Below, one piece after another: positions 3,571 to 59,774 of a stretch of DNA of 64,000 bases. Source of the DNA: Dorea sp. CAG:317 (lineage in GTDB: Bacteria > Bacillota > Clostridia > Lachnospirales > Lachnospiraceae); assembly GCA_000433535.1 (NCBI GenBank), contig FR892671.1, forward strand, positions 159,569 to 223,568, written 5' to 3'. The position numbers were made by a program, and so were the translations under genes. Below the pieces are notes generated by a model. It saw nothing but the letters and a program-made list of their open reading frames with translations. It ran no database searches and was not told the DNA's origin. Every line of letters begins with the position of its first letter. Position 1 is the first letter of the stretch.

Positions 3571-4953
3571 CTAGTTTGCTTCGCCTTGATAGTATTTATC
3601 GATCAGTTTTGTATCAATTCTGTCTAACTCTTCCTTCGGCAGAAGTCCCAGAAGCTCCCATCCAAGATTCAATGTATCCAGAATCGTTCTATTCTCAGTT
3701 GGTCCCTGACCAATATATCTTTTCTCAAATTCTTCACCGAATTTCAGATATTTCTTATCGATCGGAGACAGTTCATCCTCACCGATAACAGAAGCAAGAT
3801 TTCTTGCCTCTCCTACTTTTGCGTAAGAAGAGAACAACTGGTTTGCCAGATCCTGATGATCTTCTCTTGTGTATCCCGCTCCGATACCGTCTTTCATAAG
3901 ACGTGACAGAGATGGTAAGATACTGATCGGCGGATACACTGCCTGCCCGTGGAGATTACGGTCCAATACAATCTGCCCCTCTGTAATATATCCGGTAAGG
4001 TCCGGGATCGGATGTGTAATATCATCGTTTGGCATCGTCAGAATCGGAAGCTGTGTCACAGATCCGGTTGAATCTTCTACAATACCCGCACGCTCATAAA
4101 TCGTTGCAAGCTCACTGTACAAGTAGCCCGGATATCCTTTTCTTGACGGAATCTCTCCTCTGGAAGACGAAACTTCACGCATCGCCTCCGCAAAAGAAGT
4201 CATATCTGTCAAAATAACCAAAATGTGCATATTGCATTCAAACGCAAGATATTCCGCAACTGTCAATGCAACCTTTGGTGTGATCAGACGCTCTACCACC
4301 GGATCATTTGCCAGATTTAAGAACATACACACGTGATCGGATACTCCGCTTTCCTCAAATGTTTTCTGGAAGAACTCTGCCACGTCATGCTTTACACCCA
4401 TTGCACCGAACACAACTGCGAATTCTCCTTCCGCGTCATCCCCCAGCGAAGCCTGCTTAACAATCTGGGCAGCCAGCTGATCATGCGGAAGTCCATTTCC
4501 GGAAAAGATCGGAAGCTTCTGACCACGAATCAAAGTGGTCAAACCATCAATCGCAGAAATACCTGTGCGAATGTAGTTTCTTGGATATTCACGTTTTACA
4601 GGATTCAAAGGGAGTCCATTAACATCACGCTTATCCGCTGCATTTAGCGGGCCGAGATGGTCGATCGGACGGCCGATTCCATCAAATGTACGTCCCAGCA
4701 TATCCGGTGACACGGACACTTCCATCGGATGTCCGGTAAGCTTCGTATGTGTGTTGACAAGAGACATGTTGTCTGTTCCTTCAAACACCTGAATGATTGC
4801 TTTATCTTCATTCAACTCTACGATACGCCCCATCTTGCGGATATTTCCATCTACAACAAATTCTACAATTTCATCAAAAAACGCATCCTGTACGCCTTCC
4901 AGCGCAACCAGAGGACCGTTAATATTACTTAAGCCAAGATATTCAATTGCCAT
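3571..4953 (-). CDS. ntpB: V-type ATP synthase subunit B
   Basis: It is 460 aa. The non-catalytic nucleotide-binding fold is present (MAIEYLGLS...GRIVEL...). It follows the A subunit. Confidence 0.95.
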
Positions 4954-4967
4954 AATCAGTCCCTCCT

Positions 4968-6740
4968 TTACGCGTTTTTCTCGATGACTCTGTTATAGAA
5001 TTCATCGATTTGCAATTTATACATATCCAACATCTGCAGATTATCATTTGGCACATCATATTTAATCGCGATCACTTTATCGAAGATTCCCTCTGCCTTC
5101 AGTACAGACATCGGCATTCCCATAGCAACCAGCTTTCTGCTGGTTTTATACAGATACAGGATCACATCCATCATTTTAAACTGCTTCTCCATTGATACAC
5201 AAGTATCATCCTTATGGAATGCGTTCTGCTGCAAAAATCCAAGACGAATGACTCTGGCAATCTCAAGGATCAGCTTCTGATCATCAGGGAGTACGTCTCC
5301 GCCGATCAGTTTTACAATTTCCATAAGACTGCTCTCCTGATTGAGAAGTGACATCAGACGGTTTCTGTAATCGACGAATTTCGGCGATACATTTTCAAAA
5401 TACCATCCGCTCAGGTCGTTTAAATATTCGCTGTAACTGGACAGCCAATGAATTGCCGGGAAATGTCTTGCATAGGCAAGGGATTTATCAAGTCCCCAGA
5501 AACATCGCACAAAACGTTTCGTATTCTGTGTGACCGGCTCCGAGAAGTCACCGCCCTGAGGAGATACTGCTCCGATAATGGACACCGAACCGGTTGCCCC
5601 GTTCAGCGTCTGCATCATTCCCGCGCGCTCATAGAACGCAGACAGTCTGGATGCCAGATACGCCGGGAATCCTTCTTCTGCCGGCATCTCTTCCAGACGT
5701 CCTGACAGCTCACGCAGAGCCTCTGCCCAACGGGAAGTAGAGTCTGCCATAATCGCCACATCATAGCCCATGTCCCGGTAATACTCCGCCAATGTAAGCC
5801 CTGTATAAATAGAAGCTTCACGGGCTGCCACCGGCATATTGGATGTATTGGCGATCAATGTCGTACGGTCCATCAGAGGATTGCCGCTCTTTGGGTCGAT
5901 CAACTCTGAAAATTCTTCCAGAACCTGTGTCATCTCATTTCCACGCTCTCCGCAGCCGATATAAATGATAATATCCGCATCGGACCATTTTGCGATCTGA
6001 TGCTGCGTCATCGTCTTACCTGTTCCGAAACCACCCGGAATTGCTGCTGTTCCTCCCTTTGCGATTGGGAACATTGTATCCAGAATACGCTGACCTGTAA
6101 TCAAAGGCACACTTGCCGGATATCTCTTATGCACCGGTCTTGGCACACGGATCGGCCATTTCTGCGTCATCGTCAGCTCTTTCTTTCCACCATCTGTCAA
6201 TTCGATTGTCACAAGCACGTCATCAATTGTATATTGTCCATCTTCCACAACGGATACGACTACACCATCTACGTTCGGAGGCACCATACATTTGTGTACG
6301 ATCGCGCGAGTCTCCGGTACTTCTGCAATGATCGTTCCTCCGTGAACTGTATCACCGACTGCAACGGTGATATGAGTATCCCACAATCTGGTGCGGTCCA
6401 GAAAATCTACGTTAGCGCCACGGGTGATAAAAGAACCGCCGGTATCTGCGATCCGCTCCAGCGGTCTTTCAATACCGTCAAAAATGTTGTCAAGAATTCC
6501 GGGAGCCAGCGTGACTGACACTGCATCACCGGAAGATACCACTTCCTCGCCCGGACGAAGTCCTGATGTCTCTTCATACACCTGAATCGTTGTCAGATCT
6601 TTATCGAGAGAAATAACTTCTCCAACCAGACGTTCCTTCCCGACATATACCATTTCTGACATTTTAAACTCATATTTTCCTTTTAAATAGATAACGGGAC
6701 CATTGATGCCGTAGATCTTTCCTGTCTTTACACTATCCAA
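4968..6740 (-). CDS. ntpA: V-type ATP synthase catalytic subunit A
   Basis: A Walker A motif GGFGTGKT is present. The likely TTG start at 6740 has an AGGGAGG RBS 8 nt upstream. The longer ORF to 6791 includes that RBS. The stop of the E-subunit gene abuts. Confidence 0.95.
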
Positions 6741-7329
6741 TTCCCGCACCTCCCTTGAACAAGAAATTATGGTACTCATTTTCCAGCGCACCCTTATAGG
6801 CGTGATCGATCAGTATATTCTTCTCATGGATCACTGCCCGGATACCACCGACAAAATCTTCTGTGCTGATTGTAAGCTTCATACCTGTATCCTTTTCCAG
6901 ATACTCTTTTTTATCTGCGTCCGTCTGATTAATATAAATCGTCATCTCTTCCCCGTCCGCAAATCTTGCAGCCTTCTCAATATATTTTTCAAGAAGTTCA
7001 AGATATTCTTCTGTTTTCATAAAATTCTGAAGCTCTTCTTCCACTTCTGCAAACAGAGCTTTTTTCAAAAGCTTATGCTTCTTCCCTGCTTCCCGCTTCA
7101 TTTCAAGCTGCGCTTTGGACACTGCCATATTCAGCTGCTGGCGGGTACTTACAGTCTCAGACTTGATACGAAGCTCAGACTGATGCTTTCTTTCTAATTT
7201 ATGCTGTTCAAACACTCCGCGCAGTGCATCCTCATGGCGTTTCATAATGGCATTTTCCTCTGCCCTTGCTTCTTCCATAGCTGCTACGCGCAAATGTAAG
7301 ATTTTCTCTTCTAAGGTCAAAAATGTCAC
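6733..7329 (-). CDS. ntpE: V-type ATP synthase subunit E
   Basis: It is about 195 aa, charged and helical, and sits in the operon. The ORF start is GTG. A TTG three codons downstream has a better RBS (AGAGGTG plus 6 nt). Confidence 0.75.
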   Translation of the reverse strand: MTFLTLEEKILHLRVAAMEEARAEENAIMKRHEDALRGVFEQHKLERKHQSELRIKSETVSTRQQLNMAVSKAQLEMKREAGKKHKLLKKALFAEVEEELQNFMKTEEYLELLEKYIEKAARFADGEEMTIYINQTDADKKEYLEKDTGMKLTISTEDFVGGIRAVIHEKNILIDHAYKGALENEYHNFLFKGGAGIG

Positions 7330-7336
7330 CTCTTCT

Positions 7337-7645
7337 CTACAGTTTCAAACCAATTGCCTCATTTACATAAGATGTGATAAAGTCTTTTCTACGTCCGGTT
7401 CCGTGTCTGTCAGGAATCTCAATCAATAGCGGCATGGTACGTTCCATACGAATCTCATTGATCAGATCCGGGAACTCCCGCCCGAACTTCTCTGTGAGCA
7501 GGATCACCCCTACCTCTTTATCGTCCATGGCAGTTTCGATGGCAGTACGAAGTGCTCCTCTTTCATGCACTACAATACCGTCCACACCTGCCAGCCGCAT
7601 TCCTGTCAGCGTATCCACATTATCACTGATCAGATACATCTTCAT
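7337..7645 (-). CDS. ntpF: V-type ATP synthase subunit F
   Basis: It is 102 aa with a VatF-like fold and follows the K subunit in the operon. Confidence 0.8.
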   Translation of the reverse strand: MKMYLISDNVDTLTGMRLAGVDGIVVHERGALRTAIETAMDDKEVGVILLTEKFGREFPDLINEIRMERTMPLLIEIPDRHGTGRRKDFITSYVNEAIGLKL

Positions 7646-7646
7646 C

Positions 7647-8081
7647 TTACAATTTACCTAAGATCATGAAGGAGATGATCAGTCCGTACAGACATACACC
7701 TTCTGCAAGACCTACGAAGATCAGTGATTTACCAAGCGCACTGGAATCCTCACTGATTGCACCAAGCGCTGCTGATGCGGCACTTGCTACGGCAATACCA
7801 CCGCCCACACAAGATAAACCGGTTGAAAGTGCTGCGGCAAGGTAACCAAATCCGGTTGCGTTAGATGCTGCTGTTCCTGCTGCCTCTGCTGCATGAACCG
7901 GATCTCCACTAAACATCATAATACCGGCAATCACAAATGCACTGAAATAAAAGAACGCATTTGCTCCGATCGCTCTTTTGTAACGCTTCTTTGTTTTCTC
8001 TCCAAGAAGAAAATAACCGAATGGAATCACAATGCCAAGTACAAGGGCTCCGATAAGTAATAATTTTACTGCTAATGTCAT
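7647..8081 (-). CDS. ntpK: V-type ATP synthase proteolipid subunit K (c-ring)
   Basis: It is 144 aa with two predicted TM hairpins and glycine-rich GxGxGxG helices. Confidence 0.9.
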   Translation of the reverse strand: MTLAVKLLLIGALVLGIVIPFGYFLLGEKTKKRYKRAIGANAFFYFSAFVIAGIMMFSGDPVHAAEAAGTAASNATGFGYLAAALSTGLSCVGGGIAVASAASAALGAISEDSSALGKSLIFVGLAEGVCLYGLIISFMILGKL

Positions 8082-38087: not shown

Positions 38088-38441
38088 TTATTCGTATAAA
38101 ACTTGCGCAATCAAAATTAAAGGTTCTTCCCCTTCACAAGCAATTCCATGTGTATCTCCAGGCATCGCTGCAATAATATCTCCTGATTCAAGATGTTGTT
38201 CCTCTCCGTTTATAATATGTATTGCCTTTCCTGATACTAATACCATTGACTCCATTTCTCCTTGATGTGTATGCATACCAATTGATACACCAGGTTCCAA
38301 CACATGCCTTACATATGCTCTCCCTTTTCCCAACATTTCTGCAGGGGCATCCAAAAGCTTCTGCATCCTTACAGTTCCTTCTCCACCCATACAGTTCTCA
38401 ATAGGGACAATCTCTATCTCTTTCGCTTTTCTATAAACCAT
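38088..38441 (-). CDS. Cupin-domain protein
   Basis: It is 117 aa with the two-His cupin motifs G.S.G.HTH and PGDTHG. Confidence 0.7.
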   Translation of the reverse strand: MVYRKAKEIEIVPIENCMGGEGTVRMQKLLDAPAEMLGKGRAYVRHVLEPGVSIGMHTHQGEMESMVLVSGKAIHIINGEEQHLESGDIIAAMPGDTHGIACEGEEPLILIAQVLYE

Positions 38442-42159: not shown

Positions 42160-42831
42160 TCACATGAGACCTTTTGCAACAAGTGCATCCTTTAATGCCA
42201 ATGCTCCAAATCTTGGACTGGAAACAACTAATTTTTCATATTTACCATGAATAATTTCTTCACAATATGCCATAGATCCTTGAGCAAATAAAATAACATC
42301 TGCTTTTTCGGCAACTTTTCCTGCATATTCTGTCATTAAATTTTTAAACTGCTCCTGATCCAGACCAAAAGCTCCATCAACCAAACAATCAATTAATTCT
42401 ACATGCTTATTCATCTCACGGGCAACCCTCAGAATTGTATTTTTTGTTGGTTCCAGAGTAGTCGGAAGTGTTGCCATAACTGCAATCTTATTTCCTTTAC
42501 GAACTGCTTCTCTACACATTTCTTCATCTACTCTTACAATTGGGACTCCAATATACTTTGCAATTCCTTGCGCTGCATCTGCGACCTCACCGACAGAAGA
42601 ACATAAATTTAAAATTGCATCTGCACCATCATTAACTGCTTTCATATACATTCCTACCAGTCTTGCAGCCGGATAAGCTGTAACATACCCCGCATCTCTA
42701 ACTTCAGCCAAAATAGATGGGTCTTGATAACTCATAATTTCCGTGTTCTGCGGTAATAATTTACCTACTTCCCGTTCCACCAGTTCAATCAATTCCGGTG
42801 TTGTACTCGTATAAACTAATGCTACTTTCAT
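42160..42831 (-). CDS. Asp/Glu/hydantoin-racemase superfamily protein (arylmalonate-decarboxylase or maleate-isomerase-like)
   Basis: It is about 223 aa. A GGAGG RBS lies before the ATG (MKVALVYTS). The fold has two Cys-containing loops. Confidence 0.75.
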   Translation of the reverse strand: MKVALVYTSTTPELIELVEREVGKLLPQNTEIMSYQDPSILAEVRDAGYVTAYPAARLVGMYMKAVNDGADAILNLCSSVGEVADAAQGIAKYIGVPIVRVDEEMCREAVRKGNKIAVMATLPTTLEPTKNTILRVAREMNKHVELIDCLVDGAFGLDQEQFKNLMTEYAGKVAEKADVILFAQGSMAYCEEIIHGKYEKLVVSSPRFGALALKDALVAKGLM

Positions 42832-42891
42832 ATGTATACCTCCACTCTCTTTCATCCTTCGTATAACGTAGGATGTTTAAACTGATTATAG

Positions 42892-47718: not shown

Positions 47719-48576
47719 TCAAGCCATAAACTCCTCCAGTATCTGCCTGATCAACACCTCTTTCGCAGGTGTCTCTTTTTTCTCTTCCACCTGCTTTTCC
47801 TGTTTCTCCTGTTCACTTACCGTCACTTCCTGCCGGCGCAGATCTGATACCGGAAGAACCCTTGGTATCGGTTCCGGCTGCAGTGGCGCTGTTAACTCCG
47901 GCTGTGGCTGTGGATTAGGCTGTGACTTTGGCTGCGGAAGTGCTGTTGATTCCATCTCCGACTGTATATGCATCTGCGGCTCCGGCTGCCTGTTCACCTG
48001 TAACTCCGACTGCGGTTCCTGAGGCGCTTTTCCCTTCGACTCATTCTCTTTCTGGTATGCTTTCTCATAACGGTGCAGACACACATTTTCCAGATAATCA
48101 ACCATATAGTTTCTCACAACACTTACACTGTACTTCTCATCCGTAGTCAAATGAAGCAGATACAGAAGAATTCCGGCTCCAATCCCAAAAGCTCCCGTTG
48201 TAAGCACCTCATCATTCATTCCATTTCCCGTATACTCGAGGAACCCGCCCAGAATCCCTGCTGCCATACAGATGCCGACCGCCGTCACTTCCATTCTCTG
48301 AATACTGTGAAGCTTAAGTCCCGCCACACGATACTCATACAGATACTTGTCCACAAATGCCTCTACATTTTCCACCTTCTCGCTGACCATGCAGGCATGT
48401 TCGAACTTTGCACGCACCAGACGCATAAACGGATGCGTACTTTTCCCCATATTCCCCGCTCCTCTCACCAGTCGTTTCAAAGACACGTTCACAATACACT
48501 TGCTAACCACGCCTGCCGCTGCTCCCAAGCCGATGATCACCCAAATCACATGCTTGTCTAAAATCATTTCTAACAT
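47719..48576 (-). CDS. Hypothetical membrane protein with a Pro/Gln-rich (PQP/PEP) C-terminal tract
   Basis: A strong AAGGAGGG RBS lies 8 nt upstream. There are 3-4 TM segments. The periodic tract PQEPQSELQVNRQPEPQ...PQPKSQPNPQPQPE is present. Confidence 0.6.
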   Translation of the reverse strand: MLEMILDKHVIWVIIGLGAAAGVVSKCIVNVSLKRLVRGAGNMGKSTHPFMRLVRAKFEHACMVSEKVENVEAFVDKYLYEYRVAGLKLHSIQRMEVTAVGICMAAGILGGFLEYTGNGMNDEVLTTGAFGIGAGILLYLLHLTTDEKYSVSVVRNYMVDYLENVCLHRYEKAYQKENESKGKAPQEPQSELQVNRQPEPQMHIQSEMESTALPQPKSQPNPQPQPELTAPLQPEPIPRVLPVSDLRRQEVTVSEQEKQEKQVEEKKETPAKEVLIRQILEEFMA

Positions 48577-51492: not shown

Positions 51493-53337
51493 CTATACAT
51501 CCTCTCTCTTTTCAAATAACGCTTCAAATTCTTCGCGGGTAATCTTCTCTTTTTCTAACAGGAGGTTCGCGCAGGCATGAAGAACATCTTCATGCTCTTT
51601 GATAATCGATCTTGCACGGCTGTAGCACTCATCAATGATCCGCTTTACTTCGCTGTCAATGACGGTTGCCATACTTTCTCCATATCCCCTTGAAGTGTGC
51701 GCAAGGTCCCGTCCGATAAACACTTCATCACTATCGTTATCGTAATTTACAAGACCTACTGCTTCTGACATACCGAATTTGGTCACCATGGACTTCGCAA
51801 GTCCGGTAGCCTGTTTAATATCCTGAGAAGCGCCTGTTGTAATATCATCAAACACTTCCTCTTCTGCCACACGTCCGCCAAGTGCTACCGTAATATTCTG
51901 CAGCATCTTGCCTTTTGTATTAAACATCTCATCCTTCTCCGGCAGCGGCATGGTATATCCGCCGGCACCGCCTGTCGGAATGATCGATACACTGTAAACC
52001 GGTCCCACATCAGGCAGTACATGGAATAAAATCGCATGACCGGCCTCGTGGAAGGCAGTAATTCGTTTCTCTTTTTCAGAAATAACGTGACTCTTTTTCT
52101 CCGCCCCGATACCCACTTTCACGAATGCTTTCTGCACATCTGCCTGTTTCAGATAAACTCGTTCATCCTTCGCCGCCAGAATCGCCGCCTCATTCAACAG
52201 GTTCTCCAGATCTGCTCCGGTAAATCCTGCCGTTGTCCGGGCAATCTGTCCAAGATCAATATCTTCACTGAGCGGTTTCCCTTTTGCATGTACCTTAAGA
52301 ATTTCTTCACGTCCCTGCACATCCGGTCTTCCAACCATTACCTTACGGTCAAATCTGCCCGGACGAAGAATGGCGCGATCCAGAATATCCACACGGTTCG
52401 TTGCCGCCATCACAATGATTCCTTCATTCACACCAAACCCATCCATCTCCACAAGGAGCTGGTTCAATGTCTGTTCTCTCTCATCATGACCGCCGCCCAT
52501 GCCGGTTCCTCTGCTTCTGGCAACCGCATCGATCTCATCAATAAAAATGATACAAGGCGCGTTTCTCTTCGCCTCTTCAAACAGGTCTCTTACGCGGGAT
52601 GCTCCCACTCCGACAAACATTTCTACAAAATCAGAACCTGAAATCGTAAAGAACGGTACTCCCGCCTCTCCTGCAACTGCTTTCGCAAGCAATGTCTTAC
52701 CGGTTCCCGGAGGTCCTACAAGAAGGATTCCTTTAGGAATTCTTGCGCCAACCTGAATATATTTTTTCGGAGACTTTAAAAAATCTACCACTTCTTCCAG
52801 TTCTTCTTTTTCTTCCTTAAGCCCTGCCACTTGTGCAAAGGTGATTTTTTTATCTTTCTCTGTGCTAAGCTTCGCACGGCTCTTTCCAAAGCTCATGGCC
52901 TTGGCATTCGCTCCGCCGCCCTGACGGTTCATCATGGAAAACAGGAAGAAAACGCCCGCCATCATAAGGAGCACAGGAAGGATTGTTGTGGTAAACCAAT
53001 TATCCTGCGGCGCATTCGGCAATTCATAATCTACGTCCCACTCCGCCAGATCTTCCTGAATCTGGTTTACGTCAGACACATAGTAATTCTTCACCTCACC
53101 GCGCTCTCCTTCTTCCGCCTTCAGTTCAATCTCCACCCGTCCGGTAGGAACATTCTTATTCTGAATCACGGTGACATTTTGAACCTGATCACTGGCGATC
53201 AGCTCTTCAAATTCTTTTCTCGAGAGCATATCTGCCCTCTCTCCAAGTGTATTGGTAAGCCAGAACATCGCAAACAACAAAATCACAAATGTTAAAAGTG
53301 TGAATCCGCCTACCCCTCTGTTTCTTCTATCCTCCAA
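51493..53337 (-). CDS. ftsH: ATP-dependent zinc metalloprotease FtsH
   Basis: AAA Walker A GPPGTGKT, the SRH region and the HEAGH zinc site are present. The probable TTG start has an AAAGGGG RBS 6 nt upstream. The ORF as listed starts with GTG at 53361. Confidence 0.9.
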
Positions 53338-53350
53338 AGTTGTCCCCTTT

Positions 53351-53878
53351 CTACTCCACACCTTCTACAATGCCGATGTATGGAAGGTTTCTATATTTTT
53401 GCGCATAGTCAAGCCCGTATCCCACAACGAATTCATCCGGGATCTCAAAGCCTACGTAATCTACGTTTACATCTCTTACGCGTCGGTCCGGTTTATCTAA
53501 CAGTGTACAAAGATGCATGCTGTTTGGATTTCTCTTCTTCAGGATCTCTAACAGATAATAAAGTGTACGTCCGGAGTCGATGATATCCTCTACAACAAGG
53601 ACATCCTTTCCTTCTAATGTCTCATCCAGATCTTTTGCAATCTTTACTACCCCGCTTGATGAAGTTCCGTCACCGTAGCTGCTGACACTCATAAAGTCCA
53701 TAGATACCGGAACGGAAATTCTCTTTGCCAATTCGCACATAAAAAATACGCCGCCCTTTAATACACAGATCAAATGAATCTGCTTTCCTGCGTAATCTTT
53801 GCTGATCTGCTCACCAAGCTGCTTAATTCTTTCTTCTACCTGTTCTTCAGGAATCATTACTTTCACTGTCTCTGCCAT
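53351..53878 (-). CDS. hpt: Hypoxanthine-guanine phosphoribosyltransferase
   Basis: The PRPP motif [13 protein letters not shown] is present. A GGAGG RBS lies 8 nt upstream of the ATG (MAETVKV). Confidence 0.9.
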
Positions 53879-55244
53879 TTTTCTTTCCTCCATAAAATGT
53901 AATTTCCAAAACGTGTTTTGTTCTGTCTGTTATCTGATATGTTTGATTCTGTCTGTATCCCACCACCCATAAAATATGGTGTCCGTCTGCCACAAGCCAT
54001 ATGTGGTCTCTTACTTCCTGCGGAATCTTCTCATTGACAAAATACTGCTTCAGCTTTTGCGTTCCCCCGGCTTCATTAATTGTAATATAATCTCCCGGCT
54101 GCCTGTGTCTGATTTCTACAGTATTGTTTATTATATCATAATCAAACCACTTCGTGTATACTTTTTCCGGAAATGTTTCCTCTTCCGGACGGTACTCAAA
54201 CACTCGCATATGATATAGCTTCCCCGGCTCCTCTTCTTCTGCACAATGATTTTCTTCTTCCACAGAACCATTGCTGCTCGTCAACACGATCCCTTCATAG
54301 CATCGCCGGGCGGTCATTCCATATGGAAGGTGAAGCATTCTTCCCGTCTGCCGGTCAAACAATTCTGCCAGCGCCTCTATATGCACAGCCTGAAGATCTT
54401 TCTTCCTTCCCGCTATCCGGCATAATACAAGCTGAAGTACATAATTTCTCAACTCCTCCGGCACTTGCCTGTAAGCCTCTTCTTTCAGCATCACACCGCC
54501 TGAGACTTCCGATACACATTCCCCTGCATATCGTTCCACTTCCCTTTCCACATATGCTTTCACCCCGGTCATTTCTTCCATTGTGCGTGCCATATGCTGT
54601 ACACTCTCGCGGTTAATATATTGTTCCAGATAAGGCAGAATCTTCTGCCGGATTCGATTTCTCGTATAGCGGATGTCCAGATTGGTCTCATCTGTACAAT
54701 AAGATATTCCCCGTTTTTCCAAGTATGATTCAATCTCTTTTCGATCCACACACAAAAGCGGATGAATCCACGGTCCATCTGCCGGAGCAATACCTGCAAG
54801 TCCTGCAAGCCCCGTCCCTCGGCACAGATGAAAGATCAGCGTCTCGACATTGTCGTTTCTATGATGCGCAAGCGCAATCTTCGTGCCTCCCCACAGTTCC
54901 ATCTGTCGAAGAAAGGCGAATCTTCTTACTTCTCTTCCTGCTTCTTCCTCTGTCAATTTATGTTTTTCGGCATACTTCGGCACATCTTCCTTATATACAA
55001 CAAGATCTACGCCCTGCTCTTTACATACCGTTTCTACATACTCTTGATCCGAATCTGCATCCGCCCCTCGAATCTGGTGGTTTACATGTACTGCCCGAAG
55101 CTCAAACCCCAGTTCTTTTTGAAGTTCTAAGAGCACAAAAAGCAGGCATATGGAATCCGCTCCTCCCGATACACCTGCTAATACCCTGTCTGTTTTCTCA
55201 ATCATGTGCTGATCCTGCACATATTTTCTCACTTTTTGATCCAT
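53847..55244 (-). CDS. tilS: tRNA(Ile)-lysidine synthetase
   Basis: The PP-loop SGGADS is present. It is 465 aa and lies next to hpt and ftsH. Confidence 0.9.
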   Translation of the reverse strand: MDQKVRKYVQDQHMIEKTDRVLAGVSGGADSICLLFVLLELQKELGFELRAVHVNHQIRGADADSDQEYVETVCKEQGVDLVVYKEDVPKYAEKHKLTEEEAGREVRRFAFLRQMELWGGTKIALAHHRNDNVETLIFHLCRGTGLAGLAGIAPADGPWIHPLLCVDRKEIESYLEKRGISYCTDETNLDIRYTRNRIRQKILPYLEQYINRESVQHMARTMEEMTGVKAYVEREVERYAGECVSEVSGGVMLKEEAYRQVPEELRNYVLQLVLCRIAGRKKDLQAVHIEALAELFDRQTGRMLHLPYGMTARRCYEGIVLTSSNGSVEEENHCAEEEEPGKLYHMRVFEYRPEEETFPEKVYTKWFDYDIINNTVEIRHRQPGDYITINEAGGTQKLKQYFVNEKIPQEVRDHIWLVADGHHILWVVGYRQNQTYQITDRTKHVLEITFYGGKKNGRDSESNDS

Positions 55245-55389: not shown

Positions 55390-56793
55390 TTACAATTTCC
55401 AAATTCCCGCGGTCACGATCGTCATATCATCGGCGGGATTTTCTCCGCTTTGCTCCAACACCTTTCCGAGAAGATAATGCGCCAGTTCTTTCGGGTTCAC
55501 AATATCGGTTCCTTCGATGAATGCACACATCAGAGTATCCTGTTCTCCGGCAGGAAGTGCATCCATCACTCCATCGGTCACCATGATCACATAGTCCCCG
55601 GAAGAAAGCACGCGCGTATCCGTCTGGATCTCAATATCCTGCAGCACTCCGATGGGAAGTGTTGTGGAACTTATCTTTTCCACCTTTCCATTTTGCTTCA
55701 CGAACGTGGCAGACGCTCCGGCTTTTACAAATTCGCACTCTCCAGTATACAGATCAAAGATCGCCGCATCTATCGTAGAAAACCGGACATCTTCCCTTCC
55801 AATGACTAATGCCGTATTCATCATCTGAATCGCCATTTTCACCGGAAATCCTGCCTCCAGAAGCTCCTCCAGCATTTCCACTACCATTGTGCTTTCCTTG
55901 AATGCTTCCTCTCCGGAGCCCATACCATCGGACAGTGCCACCCCTTTTTTCCCTCCCGGGAGATCCGTCATAAGAAACGTATCTCCTGAGATCTTATCAC
56001 AATCTTTCCCAATTCTTGCCACTCCCTGAAGCGTATGATATCTTGCGCCCTCCACGCATGCCACGGTACTGTAATCTTCCCCCAGAATCGGGCGCTCTCC
56101 CTGCTGTGGCATCATCACCCTTCCGACGCATTTGCCCACCTCTGCCGCCAGTTCTTTCGTCACAATGCAATGCCCCTTCATTGCCTTCACAGTCAAATGG
56201 ATCTCATACTTTCCCTGCGGTGTAAGGTAAAATACGGAAGACATCATTTTAACGCCGTGCTTTTTCAAATGATTTTTCAGCTTCTTTTCCAAATGACTGT
56301 CCTCAAAAATACCCGCATCCAGTTCTCTTGTCGTATACTGGATCATTTTTGCAAAGCTTTTCATCTGACCTGCATAGCCTTCCCTGTTCTTCACTATTTT
56401 GTTATTCCAGAGCATCACTTGCTTAGCGCTTTCATAGCGCTCCAAAGTCTCCCGCAAGAACCTCGGCGCTCTCAGACACTGCTTCTGCATTTTCCGTTTT
56501 AACTCTACATTAATCTCCGCCCCATACTCTTCTACTGTGCACAACACGTCGCACATCATCTGGTACGCTGCAAGCCGCTCTGCCGCCAGACAGATTCCTT
56601 TTTTTTCACAGCCCTCGCACACACTTCCGGTCACATCCCGAAACATATTTTCAAGCTCTTCTTCTGACAAAGCGCCTTTATATCCTTCCAGTGTAAAAAA
56701 TGTTTTTGACAGATGGATCAGCGAATCCGCAAACTTGTCCATCTGCATCACATACGGATTCAAAAAAACCCCTTTTTCTTTTACTTTGTCCAT
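55390..56793 (-). CDS. SpoIIE-like PP2C phosphatase lacking the N-terminal polytopic membrane domain
   Basis: A C-terminal PP2C/SpoIIE fold is present (GDTFLMTDLPGG...SDGMGSG...DGVMD). It sits in the spoIIE position between divIC and tilS. No TM segments are evident. A Cys-rich stretch near the N-terminus reads CEGCEKKGIC. Confidence 0.65.
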   Translation of the reverse strand: MDKVKEKGVFLNPYVMQMDKFADSLIHLSKTFFTLEGYKGALSEEELENMFRDVTGSVCEGCEKKGICLAAERLAAYQMMCDVLCTVEEYGAEINVELKRKMQKQCLRAPRFLRETLERYESAKQVMLWNNKIVKNREGYAGQMKSFAKMIQYTTRELDAGIFEDSHLEKKLKNHLKKHGVKMMSSVFYLTPQGKYEIHLTVKAMKGHCIVTKELAAEVGKCVGRVMMPQQGERPILGEDYSTVACVEGARYHTLQGVARIGKDCDKISGDTFLMTDLPGGKKGVALSDGMGSGEEAFKESTMVVEMLEELLEAGFPVKMAIQMMNTALVIGREDVRFSTIDAAIFDLYTGECEFVKAGASATFVKQNGKVEKISSTTLPIGVLQDIEIQTDTRVLSSGDYVIMVTDGVMDALPAGEQDTLMCAFIEGTDIVNPKELAHYLLGKVLEQSGENPADDMTIVTAGIWKL

Positions 56794-56849
56794 GACGGTC
56801 TCCCCTTTATTCTGTTTTTCTACCATGTCAGATAGAAACCAAATGTCCG

Positions 56850-56888
56850 ATAATAATAAAAAGCTTTAGGATCTTCATCCTAAAGCTT
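56850..56888 (-). terminator. Terminator after divIC
   Basis: A hairpin gctttaggat-cttc-atcctaaagc is followed on the minus strand by tttttattatt. Confidence 0.5.
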
Positions 56889-56913: not shown

Positions 56914-57237
56914 TTATTTCCCTTTGAATATGATTTCATTTTCATGCACCAGTCCTAATTTTTCTCTGGCAACTTCCTCCACATATTCGTCTGTATTTAC
57001 ATAACTCTCCAGATTGTCAATCTCTGCAGCGCGTTCTTCTTCCTCTTTCAGCTGCTCTTCAAGCTCTGTTTCCTGCGCCCGGTAAGCTTTTTCTTTCGCA
57101 CGCAAGGTCATTGCATTGACAGAAACTACGGCAATCAGCAGTACAATAACGGCACTGATCGCAAGCACGCTTCTCTTATGTGTCTGTAAATAACTCTTAT
57201 TACGCCTTACACGGCTTCTCTTTTTCGTCTTACTCAT
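56914..57237 (-). CDS. divIC: Septum formation initiator (DivIC/FtsB family)
   Basis: It is 107 aa with a basic N-terminus, a single TM segment and a coiled coil. Confidence 0.75.
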   Translation of the reverse strand: MSKTKKRSRVRRNKSYLQTHKRSVLAISAVIVLLIAVVSVNAMTLRAKEKAYRAQETELEEQLKEEEERAAEIDNLESYVNTDEYVEEVAREKLGLVHENEIIFKGK

Positions 57238-57284: not shown

Positions 57285-57650
57285 CTAATTATGATATCTT
57301 TTTTTATTTTTTTTCGCAAGAAAACGAAAAGATTTTTTTTGATTTCGGGTGTAGATTTTTTTGTACACTTTTTCAGCTTTCCACAGAGCAAACGAAGAAA
57401 TAACCGCCCCAAACACAACACCTAGTACGAAATGCCACCTGATACTTCCAGAAGTTGTATGGTAAATTTGCACAAACAAAAACAGCGCCGAGAAGATCCA
57501 GAACAAAAAATCCTCTATTTCTATTGCCAGAAGGTTATGGCGCACAATCTGCCTGACACAGTGCAGAAATCGATAAGACAGCCTGACAATCCCTCCGGAA
57601 ACCACTGCCAGTAAAAAGATAATGAGTTCTTCTTTTACTTCCATCATCAT
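57285..57650 (-). CDS. yabQ: Spore cortex biosynthesis protein YabQ-like
   Basis: It is a 121-aa membrane protein downstream of yabP. Confidence 0.6.
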   Translation of the reverse strand: MMMEVKEELIIFLLAVVSGGIVRLSYRFLHCVRQIVRHNLLAIEIEDFLFWIFSALFLFVQIYHTTSGSIRWHFVLGVVFGAVISSFALWKAEKVYKKIYTRNQKKSFRFLAKKNKKRYHN

Positions 57651-57652
57651 GT

Positions 57653-57937
57653 TTAACGAAACAGTTTAGAGAATAGATTTTCTCCCTGCTTTGCCCCCGT
57701 ATGTACTTCCGAATAAGAAACACTGTCAATATTTCCGGACAGATCAACCTCTCCCTTTTCAAGGCTCAAACGGTTTACGTGAAGATCCGTCCCTTTTACC
57801 CTCATCATCCCCTGCTGCGTTTCCAGCAAAATCTCATTAAGATCAAAGGAAAGCACGTCTATGACCCCGGTCACCAGACTCGTTTTTCGGTTATTTACGA
57901 CCAGTTTATGATTTTTCTGTGTCGTTCTCTCTTCCAT
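57653..57937 (-). CDS. yabP: Sporulation protein YabP
   Basis: It is 94 aa with a YabP-family beta-rich sequence. Confidence 0.75.
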   Translation of the reverse strand: MEERTTQKNHKLVVNNRKTSLVTGVIDVLSFDLNEILLETQQGMMRVKGTDLHVNRLSLEKGEVDLSGNIDSVSYSEVHTGAKQGENLFSKLFR

Positions 57938-57985: not shown

Positions 57986-58225
57986 TTACAAATATCTGAA
58001 CAAGTCTTTTGCTTCTTCTTTTTTCGTTGTATCCTGAAGATCAAGCACTTCCACTTTCACAGTCTTTGTGCCGAATTGAATTTCGATCACATCGCCGACC
58101 TTTACTTTTACAGATGCTTTTGCCACATTTCCATTGACAAGAACACGCCCTGCATCACACGCTTCATTTGCCACTGTCCGCCTCTTGATCAGGCGGGATA
58201 CTTTTAAAAATTTATCCAGTCTCAT
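57986..58225 (-). CDS. S4-domain RNA-binding protein (YabO/Hsp15-like)
   Basis: It is 79 aa and has the S4 motif MRLDKFLKVSRLIKRR. Confidence 0.8.
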   Translation of the reverse strand: MRLDKFLKVSRLIKRRTVANEACDAGRVLVNGNVAKASVKVKVGDVIEIQFGTKTVKVEVLDLQDTTKKEEAKDLFRYL

Positions 58226-58300: not shown

Positions 58301-58576
58301 TTATGCGTTTACAGCATCTTTTAATGCTTTACCAGCTTTAAATCTTGGAGCTTTGCAAGCCTCGATCTTCATTGTCTTACCTGTCTGAGGATTTCTTCCC
58401 TCTCTTGCAGCTCTCTTACTTACTTCAAAAGTTCCGAAACCAACTAACTGGATCTTCTCTTCTTTCTTAAGCTCTGCTGTTACTACATCAACAAAAGCTT
58501 TTAATGCCTTTTCAGAGTCTTTCTTAGATAATTCTGCTTTCTCAGCAATAGCTGCAACTAATTCTGTTTTGTTCAT
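58301..58576 (-). CDS. hup: DNA-binding protein HU
   Basis: It is 91 aa and has the HU signature GFGTFEV...RNPQTG. Confidence 0.9.
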   Translation of the reverse strand: MNKTELVAAIAEKAELSKKDSEKALKAFVDVVTAELKKEEKIQLVGFGTFEVSKRAAREGRNPQTGKTMKIEACKAPRFKAGKALKDAVNA

Positions 58577-58772: not shown

Positions 58773-59774
58773 TTACAGGCGGAAATCAAACACGGTCTCC
58801 AAAAATCTTTTCTTCTCTCCCGTCTGTCTGATCGAAAGCTTTAATTTCTCAATACTTTTCGAAGAAATCCACGCCTTATTTGAATGGTAATAGGCACTTG
58901 CCGTTTTCCAGAATTTTTCCGGATAGGCAAGCCGAAGCTTCATATATTCTATCTCCGCTCCGGTCAGCGGTCGGATTGCCGAATAAGCATTAAGCATATT
59001 ATCTCCGAGACGTTCCTTCCACCCGTGCTTTTCCATTACCTTCCTGAGAAAATAATACAGGTCTTCTACTTGAATATCCCTCTTGAACTTATCAAAATTC
59101 GTAGTCGCCTCTATATGCGAATGTGTCCCTTCCGTCTGCATCAGTACGTTATGATAATTATATTCCCCGTGAGTCACACAATATTCTTCCATACTTTTCT
59201 CGTAGAGCGCTTCATACCCGGATGTCCCCAGCATCGATTCTGCCGCATCCGCCCATTGATACATCTGATCAAAGCATTTCAGAAAAGCATATTCAAACTC
59301 CCCTTTCGGCGTTTGATTTCGTATGAACTTGCGCACCTTTTTCAGTTCACGGTCATGTCGCAGATACAATTGCTGCAGGGGCTCCGCTGTCGCCACATCA
59401 CCGGACAGCTCCCGTCTCATAACGCCGTGGAGTTTCGCCAGATTCCCCGCAGCCTCCAATATATCTGCCGTTCTTCTGACGTCACACTCCCGTCCCGAAA
59501 ACCACCGTTTTACAATATATCGGCTTCCGTCCTCGGTACGGGAGATATACTCGTCTTCTTTATTTAAAATAATAGAATCCACATGATCATATCCCTGTTC
59601 CTTAAGATGCTCATACAATTCACACAATGCCGGAAGCCGGCTCTCGGACATCTGCACCTCTTTTAAAAGGAATACCCCCTGCTTCGTATCACATAATATA
59701 GCTCCCCTTGTTTTCCGGGTACTGTTTACTTCTAAATTATATTGTTCTAATATACTTTGTTCATAATCCTGCAT
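58773..59774 (-). CDS. CotS/YutH-family spore-coat-type kinase-like protein (phosphotransferase fold)
   Basis: It is 333 aa with an aminoglycoside-phosphotransferase-like His/Asp region (VTHGEYNYHNVL). Confidence 0.55.
   Translation of the reverse strand: MQDYEQSILEQYNLEVNSTRKTRGAILCDTKQGVFLLKEVQMSESRLPALCELYEHLKEQGYDHVDSIILNKEDEYISRTEDGSRYIVKRWFSGRECDVRRTADILEAAGNLAKLHGVMRRELSGDVATAEPLQQLYLRHDRELKKVRKFIRNQTPKGEFEYAFLKCFDQMYQWADAAESMLGTSGYEALYEKSMEEYCVTHGEYNYHNVLMQTEGTHSHIEATTNFDKFKRDIQVEDLYYFLRKVMEKHGWKERLGDNMLNAYSAIRPLTGAEIEYMKLRLAYPEKFWKTASAYYHSNKAWISSKSIEKLKLSIRQTGEKKRFLETVFDFRL

Follow-up and report, generated by a model that had tools for sequence, protein, structure and literature searches.

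A SpoIIE phosphatase without its membrane domain in a clade of gut Lachnospiraceae

In endospore formation, SpoIIE couples asymmetric septation to the earliest of the cell-specific sigma factors, and the models drawn from Bacillus subtilis lean heavily on a polytopic protein for polar capture, protection from FtsH, binding of DivIB and the formation of thin septa. The N-terminal tail of B. subtilis SpoIIE is a degradation tag for FtsH (PMC4714977), and a preprint has put its DivIB-binding groove on helices α6, α7 and α9 (PMC12259061). The regulatory domain of the same protein binds FtsZ and multimerises. The purified fragment SpoIIE(320–827), from which the membrane domain is absent, also multimerises and has been used in SpoIIAA-P phosphatase assays in vitro (Bradshaw and Losick, PMC4714977). 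Here we analyse the SpoIIE-like gene X, which lies at 55390–56826 on the minus strand of a 64,000-nucleotide stretch of Dorea sp. CAG:317 (assembly GCA_000433535.1, contig FR892671.1, positions 159,569 to 223,568; hereafter the window). X is almost certainly a soluble SpoIIE orthologue of single origin, with regulatory and PP2C domains intact and conserved across a clade of gut Lachnospiraceae.

We found no literature on SpoIIE architecture or on loss of the membrane domain in Lachnospiraceae. Sporulation-gene surveys treat spoIIE simply as present or conserved.

Domain content and 5′ boundary of X

Among the NCBIfam phosphatase families, X matches the stage II sporulation protein E equivalog TIGR02865 with an E-value of 3e-101, and the next family, Stp1, with an E-value of 0.002. 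The alignment to TIGR02865 covers profile positions 296–763 of 764. Since the first ~295 positions have no counterpart in X, the score of 339.7 bits remains below the cutoff of 490.8 bits. Pfam gives a similar picture, with PF07228 (SpoIIE/PP2C) matching residues 291–473 (E 4e-32) and PF19732 (SpoIIE_N) matching over profile positions 353–602 of 605 only. Transmembrane (TM) segments were called throughout by hydropathy only, using a 19-residue Kyte-Doolittle window and a membrane-helix threshold of 1.6; the highest window in X is 1.17 and none reaches the threshold. The ten-pass N-terminal membrane domain was thus not found in X, whether by hydropathy, by matches to TIGR02865 positions 1–295 or in the space upstream, where there is no room for it. 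The first-pass annotation, made from the letters alone, had described the gene at the SpoIIE position as a soluble regulatory and PP2C protein with no hydrophobic segment and no membrane domain, and profile, hydropathy and structure-model matches uphold that description.

What remains of the protein is organised in three modules, all encoded on the minus strand, as are all further features of the window given below. The N-terminal helical part of the regulatory domain (residues 24–172; 56311–56757) matches PF19732, includes a 53-residue helix and is modelled with a predicted local distance difference test score (pLDDT) of 75–93. It is followed by an α/β module (residues 177–259; 56050–56298), the counterpart of the regulatory fragment in 5UCG, and by the PP2C/PPM phosphatase domain (residues 263–477; 55396–56040) with the metal-binding residues D282, D300, G301, D418, D466 and D467. 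These six Asp/Gly positions are invariant across 141 relatives, save for one Ala at the D467 position. X therefore has both the fold and the metal-coordinating aspartates of the PPM/PP2C family (PF07228, SpoIIE-type). It likewise has the PP2C domain with its metal residues, the SpoIIE-specific regulatory domain and the chromosomal position that are typical of SpoIIE.

An AlphaFold2 model of X, built on 69 diverse short forms, reached a mean pLDDT of 87.6 and a predicted template-modelling score (pTM) of 0.74. In the layout of the model, helices span 13–161 (one of them of 53 residues), the α/β module spans 166–248 and the PP2C domain spans 252–466. By both sequence and fold, the best solved match is B. 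subtilis SpoIIE 457–827 (5UCG), with a sequence E-value of 3e-41, a Foldseek E-value of 1.7e-23 and a template-modelling score of 0.75–0.77, aligned from X residue 143. Sequence comparison also aligns X to 5MQH.

The N-terminus of X is short. The protein starts ~12 residues ahead of the conserved beginning of the regulatory domain, so that an N-terminal cytoplasmic tail like that of B. subtilis is absent. No replacement anchor, amphipathic or hydrophobic, was seen at the N-terminus of the 0-TM proteins, in which a short polar tail (e.g., MAEVKEKGAFL) is directly followed by the conserved motif NPYVxQ[MI]DKFAxSLxxLS that opens the helical part.

The first-pass annotation gave X as 478 aa. The longest open reading frame (ORF; 55390–56826) does have that length, and translation probably begins at the second ATG (M12, position 56793), which yields a coding sequence at 55390–56793 and a protein of 467 aa. 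This start is preferred because the sequence GGGGAG, read as a ribosome-binding site, lies 6 nt upstream of it (56800–56805) and because homologues, among the matches listed in three homology searches, are nearly all 467 or 474 aa long. The sequence AAAGGGGAG ahead of the start codon is kept in related loci, and the first 9 residues of the structure model are disordered.

A start further upstream that would encode TM helices is ruled out, as the first-pass annotation had argued. Stops are present in all three frames upstream of X, and the 87-nt gap between divIC and X holds the divIC terminator, a hairpin with a 12-bp stem and a T-tract (56861–56888); consequently, no 5′ extension of the gene is possible, and the same is found in the 76 related loci. 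The sequence of the hairpin, AAGCTTTAGGA...TCCTAAAGCTT followed by the T-tract, is kept across genera (L002, L003, L015, L021, L023, L036, L068 and L073). In L023 the stem carries a compensatory change, from TTTAGG/CCTAAA to TTCAGG/CCTGAA.

Distribution, selection and membrane forms in Lachnospiraceae

Scanning one genome per species and taking 10 kb of flank on each side, we recovered 79 loci, among them loci of Dorea, Extibacter muris, Merdimonas faecis, Sporofaciens musculi, Faecalimonas, Mediterraneibacter glycyrrhizinilyticus, Schaedlerella arabinosiphila and Faecalicatena. One of the loci, L001, is a contig of an uncultured Dorea sp. (UMGS566) whose sequence is the same as that of the window. 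In all 76 close loci (50–100% identity) the orthologue has 0 TM, is mostly 464–467 aa long and begins less than 300 nt after divIC. The comparison with related Lachnospiraceae that the first-pass annotation had suggested thus returns the same gene throughout, and because the relatives all carry the short form, the finding concerns a clade-wide trait rather than one gene. Three homology searches agree with this: the best 120 matches listed for each, which overlap, are all short (450–514 aa). One of the three had the Extibacter orthologue as its query; the named entries among its listed matches were Dorea and Merdimonas, with no named spore-former such as Clostridium scindens. Isolates and complete genomes likewise carry the intact short ORF (L005, L014, L015, L036, L053 and L058). 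Shortened copies occur at two loci from metagenome-assembled genomes (MAGs), L070 (403 aa) and L072 (415 aa), and are either pseudogenes or assembly problems. The first-pass annotation had named as a possible refutation that every relative might have this short form in a known role. The relatives do have it throughout, and no separate known function comes with it, the homologues being named in their source annotation only as “SpoIIE family protein phosphatase”.

The dN/dS ratio of X is 0.01–0.07 (Nei-Gojobori, unsaturated pairs) and is equally low in the helical, α/β and PP2C modules; for the helical N-terminal part, values of 0.00–0.14 were obtained. Together with the kept catalytic residues, these ratios indicate that X is a functional gene under strong purifying selection and no decaying fragment.

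An exhaustive HMMER search of representatives at 50% identity returned 150 best relatives, 126 of them complete over the cytoplasmic part. When these are sorted by the length of the N-terminal extension relative to X, 26 representatives have an extension of ~0 aa and 0 TM, 10 have 25–100 aa and 1–3 TM, 24 have 125–150 aa and 4–5 TM, and 59 have 275–325 aa and 8–11 TM. Lachnospiraceae SpoIIE therefore occurs in graded forms, with ~10, 5, 1 and 0 TM. The five-TM class, of ~612 aa, comes from Lachnospiraceae (P0126, P0128, P0130, P0131, P0161 and others; “Roseburia sp. 1XD42-69”) and retains only TM1–5 of the canonical domain (hhalign probability 99.8%, E 1e-27), hence lacks TM6–10. We note that the missing half includes α6, α7 and α9, the helices proposed to bind DivIB. 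In a further class of ~495 aa, found in Blautia and Robinsoniella peoriensis, a single helix lies beside the regulatory domain.

In a bootstrapped neighbour-joining tree of the cytoplasmic part, the Dorea-type clade groups at 100% bootstrap with a second 0-TM clade, which is distant (~35% identity) and has the synteny of the Dorea-type loci. A common origin of this 0-TM clade with the 1-TM forms of Blautia and Robinsoniella received a bootstrap of 6.5%, and all reduced forms together with one ~10-TM sequence (P0132) group at 73.5%. The nearest ten-TM forms are at most 36% identical to X and stand outside the 0-TM clade. The simplest reading of the tree is that the ancestor of the 0-TM clade lost the membrane domain completely and once, and that reductions elsewhere in the family arose independently. 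As the deeper branches are weakly supported, we do not claim a strict stepwise order of TM loss.

The graded series also bears on the cysteines of the regulatory domain. A CxxCx5C...C motif made up of C70, C73, C79 and C117 (56476–56619) is invariant in 13/13 Dorea-clade proteins, 62/62 ten-TM forms and 12/12 forms with 1–3 TM; in the five-TM forms it is present in 28/28, except for C79 (26/28). In contrast, C92 and C96, the cysteines of “CDVLC”, vary among SpoIIE relatives. Of the Cys-rich stretch CEGCEKKGIC...CDVLC to which the first-pass annotation had drawn attention, C70, C73 and C79 are thus conserved, along with C117, and C92 and C96 are not; nor is the stretch specific to the short form. 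A cysteine-rich novelty of the short form is ruled out, given that four cysteines are common to all classes from 0 to ~10 TM and the other two are unconserved. The motif looks like an ancestral feature of all SpoIIE classes and no adaptation of the short form. In the AlphaFold2 model the four residues are placed at helix ends or in loops, and they probably hold a metal in a structural role within the regulatory domain. Term searches turned up neither cysteine nor zinc in PMC12259061 and no cysteine in PMC2953957.

Gene neighbourhood

Pfam and NCBIfam assignments bear out the order hup, yabO, yabP, yabQ, divIC, X, tilS, hpt, ftsH that the first-pass annotation had read from the DNA. Directly upstream of X lies divIC (septum formation initiator; 56914–57237; PF04977, E 7e-14), preceded by yabQ (57285–57650) and yabP (57653–57937), a pair matching TIGR02892 and TIGR02893, both above cutoff. 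Further upstream are the S4-domain gene yabO (57986–58225), hup (58301–58576) and a gene for a CotS-family spore coat protein (58773–59774; TIGR02906, 187.3 bits for a cutoff of 172.7 bits). On the downstream side, the canonical spoIIE neighbourhood continues with tilS (53847–55244), hpt (53351–53893) and ftsH (51493–53361). Overlaps of 47 nt between tilS and hpt and of 11 nt between hpt and the longest ftsH ORF (GTG start) suggest that tilS, hpt and ftsH form a tightly coupled operon.

With few exceptions, ~76 species retain the order cotS-hup-yabO-yabP-yabQ-divIC-X-tilS-hpt-ftsH, and divIC adjoins X in every locus for which that flank was recovered. Three departures were seen. In the Schaedlerella/Faecalicatena group (L055–L067), unlike all other loci, the 10 kb that follow the SpoIIE-like gene downstream did not contain tilS-hpt-ftsH, which indicates a local rearrangement in this subclade. 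In L081, which belongs to the second 0-TM clade, hup-S4-yabP-yabQ upstream of divIC gives way to a histidine kinase/response regulator pair (4802–7907); this lineage may have lost or moved those genes yet kept the short SpoIIE. In the distant locus L078, an insertion of ~8 kb lies between divIC and the SpoIIE-like gene.

Elsewhere in the window, three ORFs at 47719–48576, 42160–42855 and 38088–38441 (285, 231 and 117 aa) gave no NCBIfam match at E ≤ 1e-5. They lie among the housekeeping genes mtnN, holB, ricT/yaaT, a TRAP transporter and rsmI.

Proposed function and comparison with known systems

The whole polytopic membrane domain was almost certainly lost a single time, in an ancestor shared by this large group of gut Lachnospiraceae, and strong purifying selection has kept the short gene since. 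What was left over is a cytoplasmic protein of ~467 aa, composed of a helical module with the four-cysteine site, an α/β module and an intact Mn-dependent PP2C domain. X most likely dephosphorylates SpoIIAA~P, which would release sigma-F after asymmetric division, and it is probably recruited to the polar divisome by its regulatory domain, with no membrane anchor. Functions of the membrane domain and N-terminal tail, namely FtsH-tag proteolysis, DivIB recruitment, constriction licensing and the formation of thin septa, would be unnecessary or weaker in the 0-TM clade, or would have passed to other proteins. Compartmentalisation through an FtsH tag could not work in X as it is defined for B. 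subtilis, since tag and anchor are both absent. Arigoni and colleagues reportedly observed in 1999 that a TM-less cytoplasmic SpoIIE still gave largely forespore-specific activation of sigma-F.

The reports on two carriers of reduced forms are compatible with sporulation. Sporofaciens musculi, which carries a 467-aa 0-TM form (L036), was isolated after ethanol treatment and forms endospores, rare ones, as seen by Schaeffer-Fulton staining and scanning electron microscopy (bioRxiv 10.1101/2019.12.21.885665). Robinsoniella peoriensis, whose SpoIIE has 495 aa and 1 TM, is consistently described as spore-forming. We found no useful literature on spores in Schaedlerella. The first-pass annotation had raised two options, another way of localising to the septum or repurposing. 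The ancestral position beside yabP, yabQ and cotS, strong purifying selection on the regulatory module and the existence of a sporulating carrier favour a retained SpoIIE function.

Several observations weigh against this proposal. Constriction, thin septa and the binding of DivIB all depend on the membrane domain in B. subtilis, so that a protein without TM segments is not expected to cover all SpoIIE functions; when the native membrane domain is replaced (MalF-SpoIIEcyt), condensed Z-rings do not constrict, septa are thick and DivIB binding is lost (PMC12259061). Many, or most, of the carriers either have not been cultured or count as non-sporulating by description or prediction; SpoMAG, for example, classed Dorea, Faecalimonas, Mediterraneibacter and Blautia MAGs as non-sporulating. 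The endospores of Sporofaciens are rare. A Spo0A box was found within 260 nt upstream of X in none of 74 loci, and a relaxed pattern in 3/74 as against 12% of background windows. A scan for the sigma-70 consensus performed no better than on shuffled sequence (8 sites versus 6.1 expected) and gave no convincing promoter. With 25–60 nt between the divIC terminator and the ribosome-binding site of X, there is scarcely space for a conventional promoter; read-through of the terminator and an overlapping promoter for an alternative sigma factor are possibilities for its transcription.

With these points counted, we regard the account as a whole, in which X is a cytoplasmic orthologue of SpoIIE, has retained the activation of sigma-F and is brought to the divisome by its regulatory domain, as the likelier explanation, held with some reserve. 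That this clade of gut Lachnospiraceae carries out asymmetric division and forespore-specific activation of sigma-F with a wholly cytoplasmic SpoIIE is advanced more tentatively.

The strongest alternative is repurposing. A soluble SpoIIE derivative could have been kept for a role outside sporulation, such as another partner-switching module or vegetative division, in lineages that rarely or never sporulate. The many carriers described or predicted as non-spore-formers and the missing Spo0A boxes would fit such a repurposing, as would the kinase/response-regulator pair at the usual yabP/yabQ site in L081 and the very strong selection on X even in taxa without reported spores. However, X is embedded among yabP, yabQ and cotS in nearly all loci, no new partner gene stands beside it, its SpoIIE-specific regulatory domain is constrained as much as its PP2C domain, and at least one carrier forms endospores. 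We therefore consider repurposing unlikely.

It is less probable still that the membrane domain, or a complete ten-TM SpoIIE, is encoded elsewhere and acts with or beside X. Domain fission is common in bacteria, and our search reached only 10 kb to each side of each locus. Within that reach, a tblastn search that used 98 N-terminal membrane regions of 1-, 5- and 10-TM relatives as queries detected no membrane-domain ORF, either across the 64-kb window or at any of the 76 close loci; the only membrane matches came from the distant loci L077 and L079, where a remnant of one or two helices is still fused to the gene. Moreover, X sits at the ancestral spoIIE position, and the nearest ten-TM forms, as described above, fall outside its clade. 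To our knowledge SpoIIE is single-copy in characterised spore-formers, which we also count against a second copy.

That X is a truncated pseudogene, or that it owes its shape to mis-assembly or to a wrongly called start, as might be suspected of a window from an uncultured-genome bin and in view of the shortened MAG copies, is hardly credible and is refuted by the 0-TM gene in 76 close loci and its low dN/dS, in line with the intact ORF in isolates and complete genomes, the uniformly short matches listed in the homology searches and a 5′ end that the divIC terminator, together with a stop in each upstream frame, holds fixed.

A cytoplasmic SpoIIE that still serves sporulation would be of interest to research on both sporulation and cell division. 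The clade-wide 0-TM form, with at least one spore-former among its carriers, shows the cytoplasmic half to be the conserved core of SpoIIE. If the proposal is correct, capture and stabilisation through an FtsH tag, DivIB recruitment, constriction licensing and septal thinning would not be universal requirements of endospore formation, and evolution would in effect have dissected the membrane domain in the natural series of 10, 5, 1 and 0 TM, whose members are natural test cases for which of the domain's functions are essential. On the practical side, since the short forms fall below the equivalog cutoff, sporulation predictors based on gene content may undercount spoIIE in dominant gut Lachnospiraceae.

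Compared with the systems described so far, X resembles B. subtilis SpoIIE (TIGR02865; 5UCG, 5MQH, 3T91) in its regulatory and PP2C domains, its invariant catalytic residues and its place in a divIC...tilS-hpt-ftsH neighbourhood. It differs in having neither the ten-pass membrane domain nor the N-terminal cytoplasmic tail, in scoring below the equivalog cutoff and in the lack of a Spo0A box upstream. In this respect X is the natural counterpart of the soluble SpoIIE(320–827) fragment of B. subtilis. With the reduced SpoIIEs of other Lachnospiraceae (~612 aa with 5 TM; ~495 aa with 1 TM) it shares the cytoplasmic part, the cysteine motif and the catalytic residues, whereas those proteins keep TM1–5 or one juxtamembrane helix and X keeps none. 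Phosphatases of the RsbU, RsbP and RsbX type are similarly cytoplasmic PP2C proteins with an N-terminal regulatory region, and the structural matches to the PP2C domain of X include RsbX and an RsbU-type domain; X differs from them in carrying a regulatory domain of the SpoIIE-specific PF19732 type. In sum, X is a SpoIIE-derived variant and no canonical member of the family, because it lacks the membrane domain and scores below the family cutoff but has the PP2C domain, the regulatory domain and the chromosomal position of SpoIIE.

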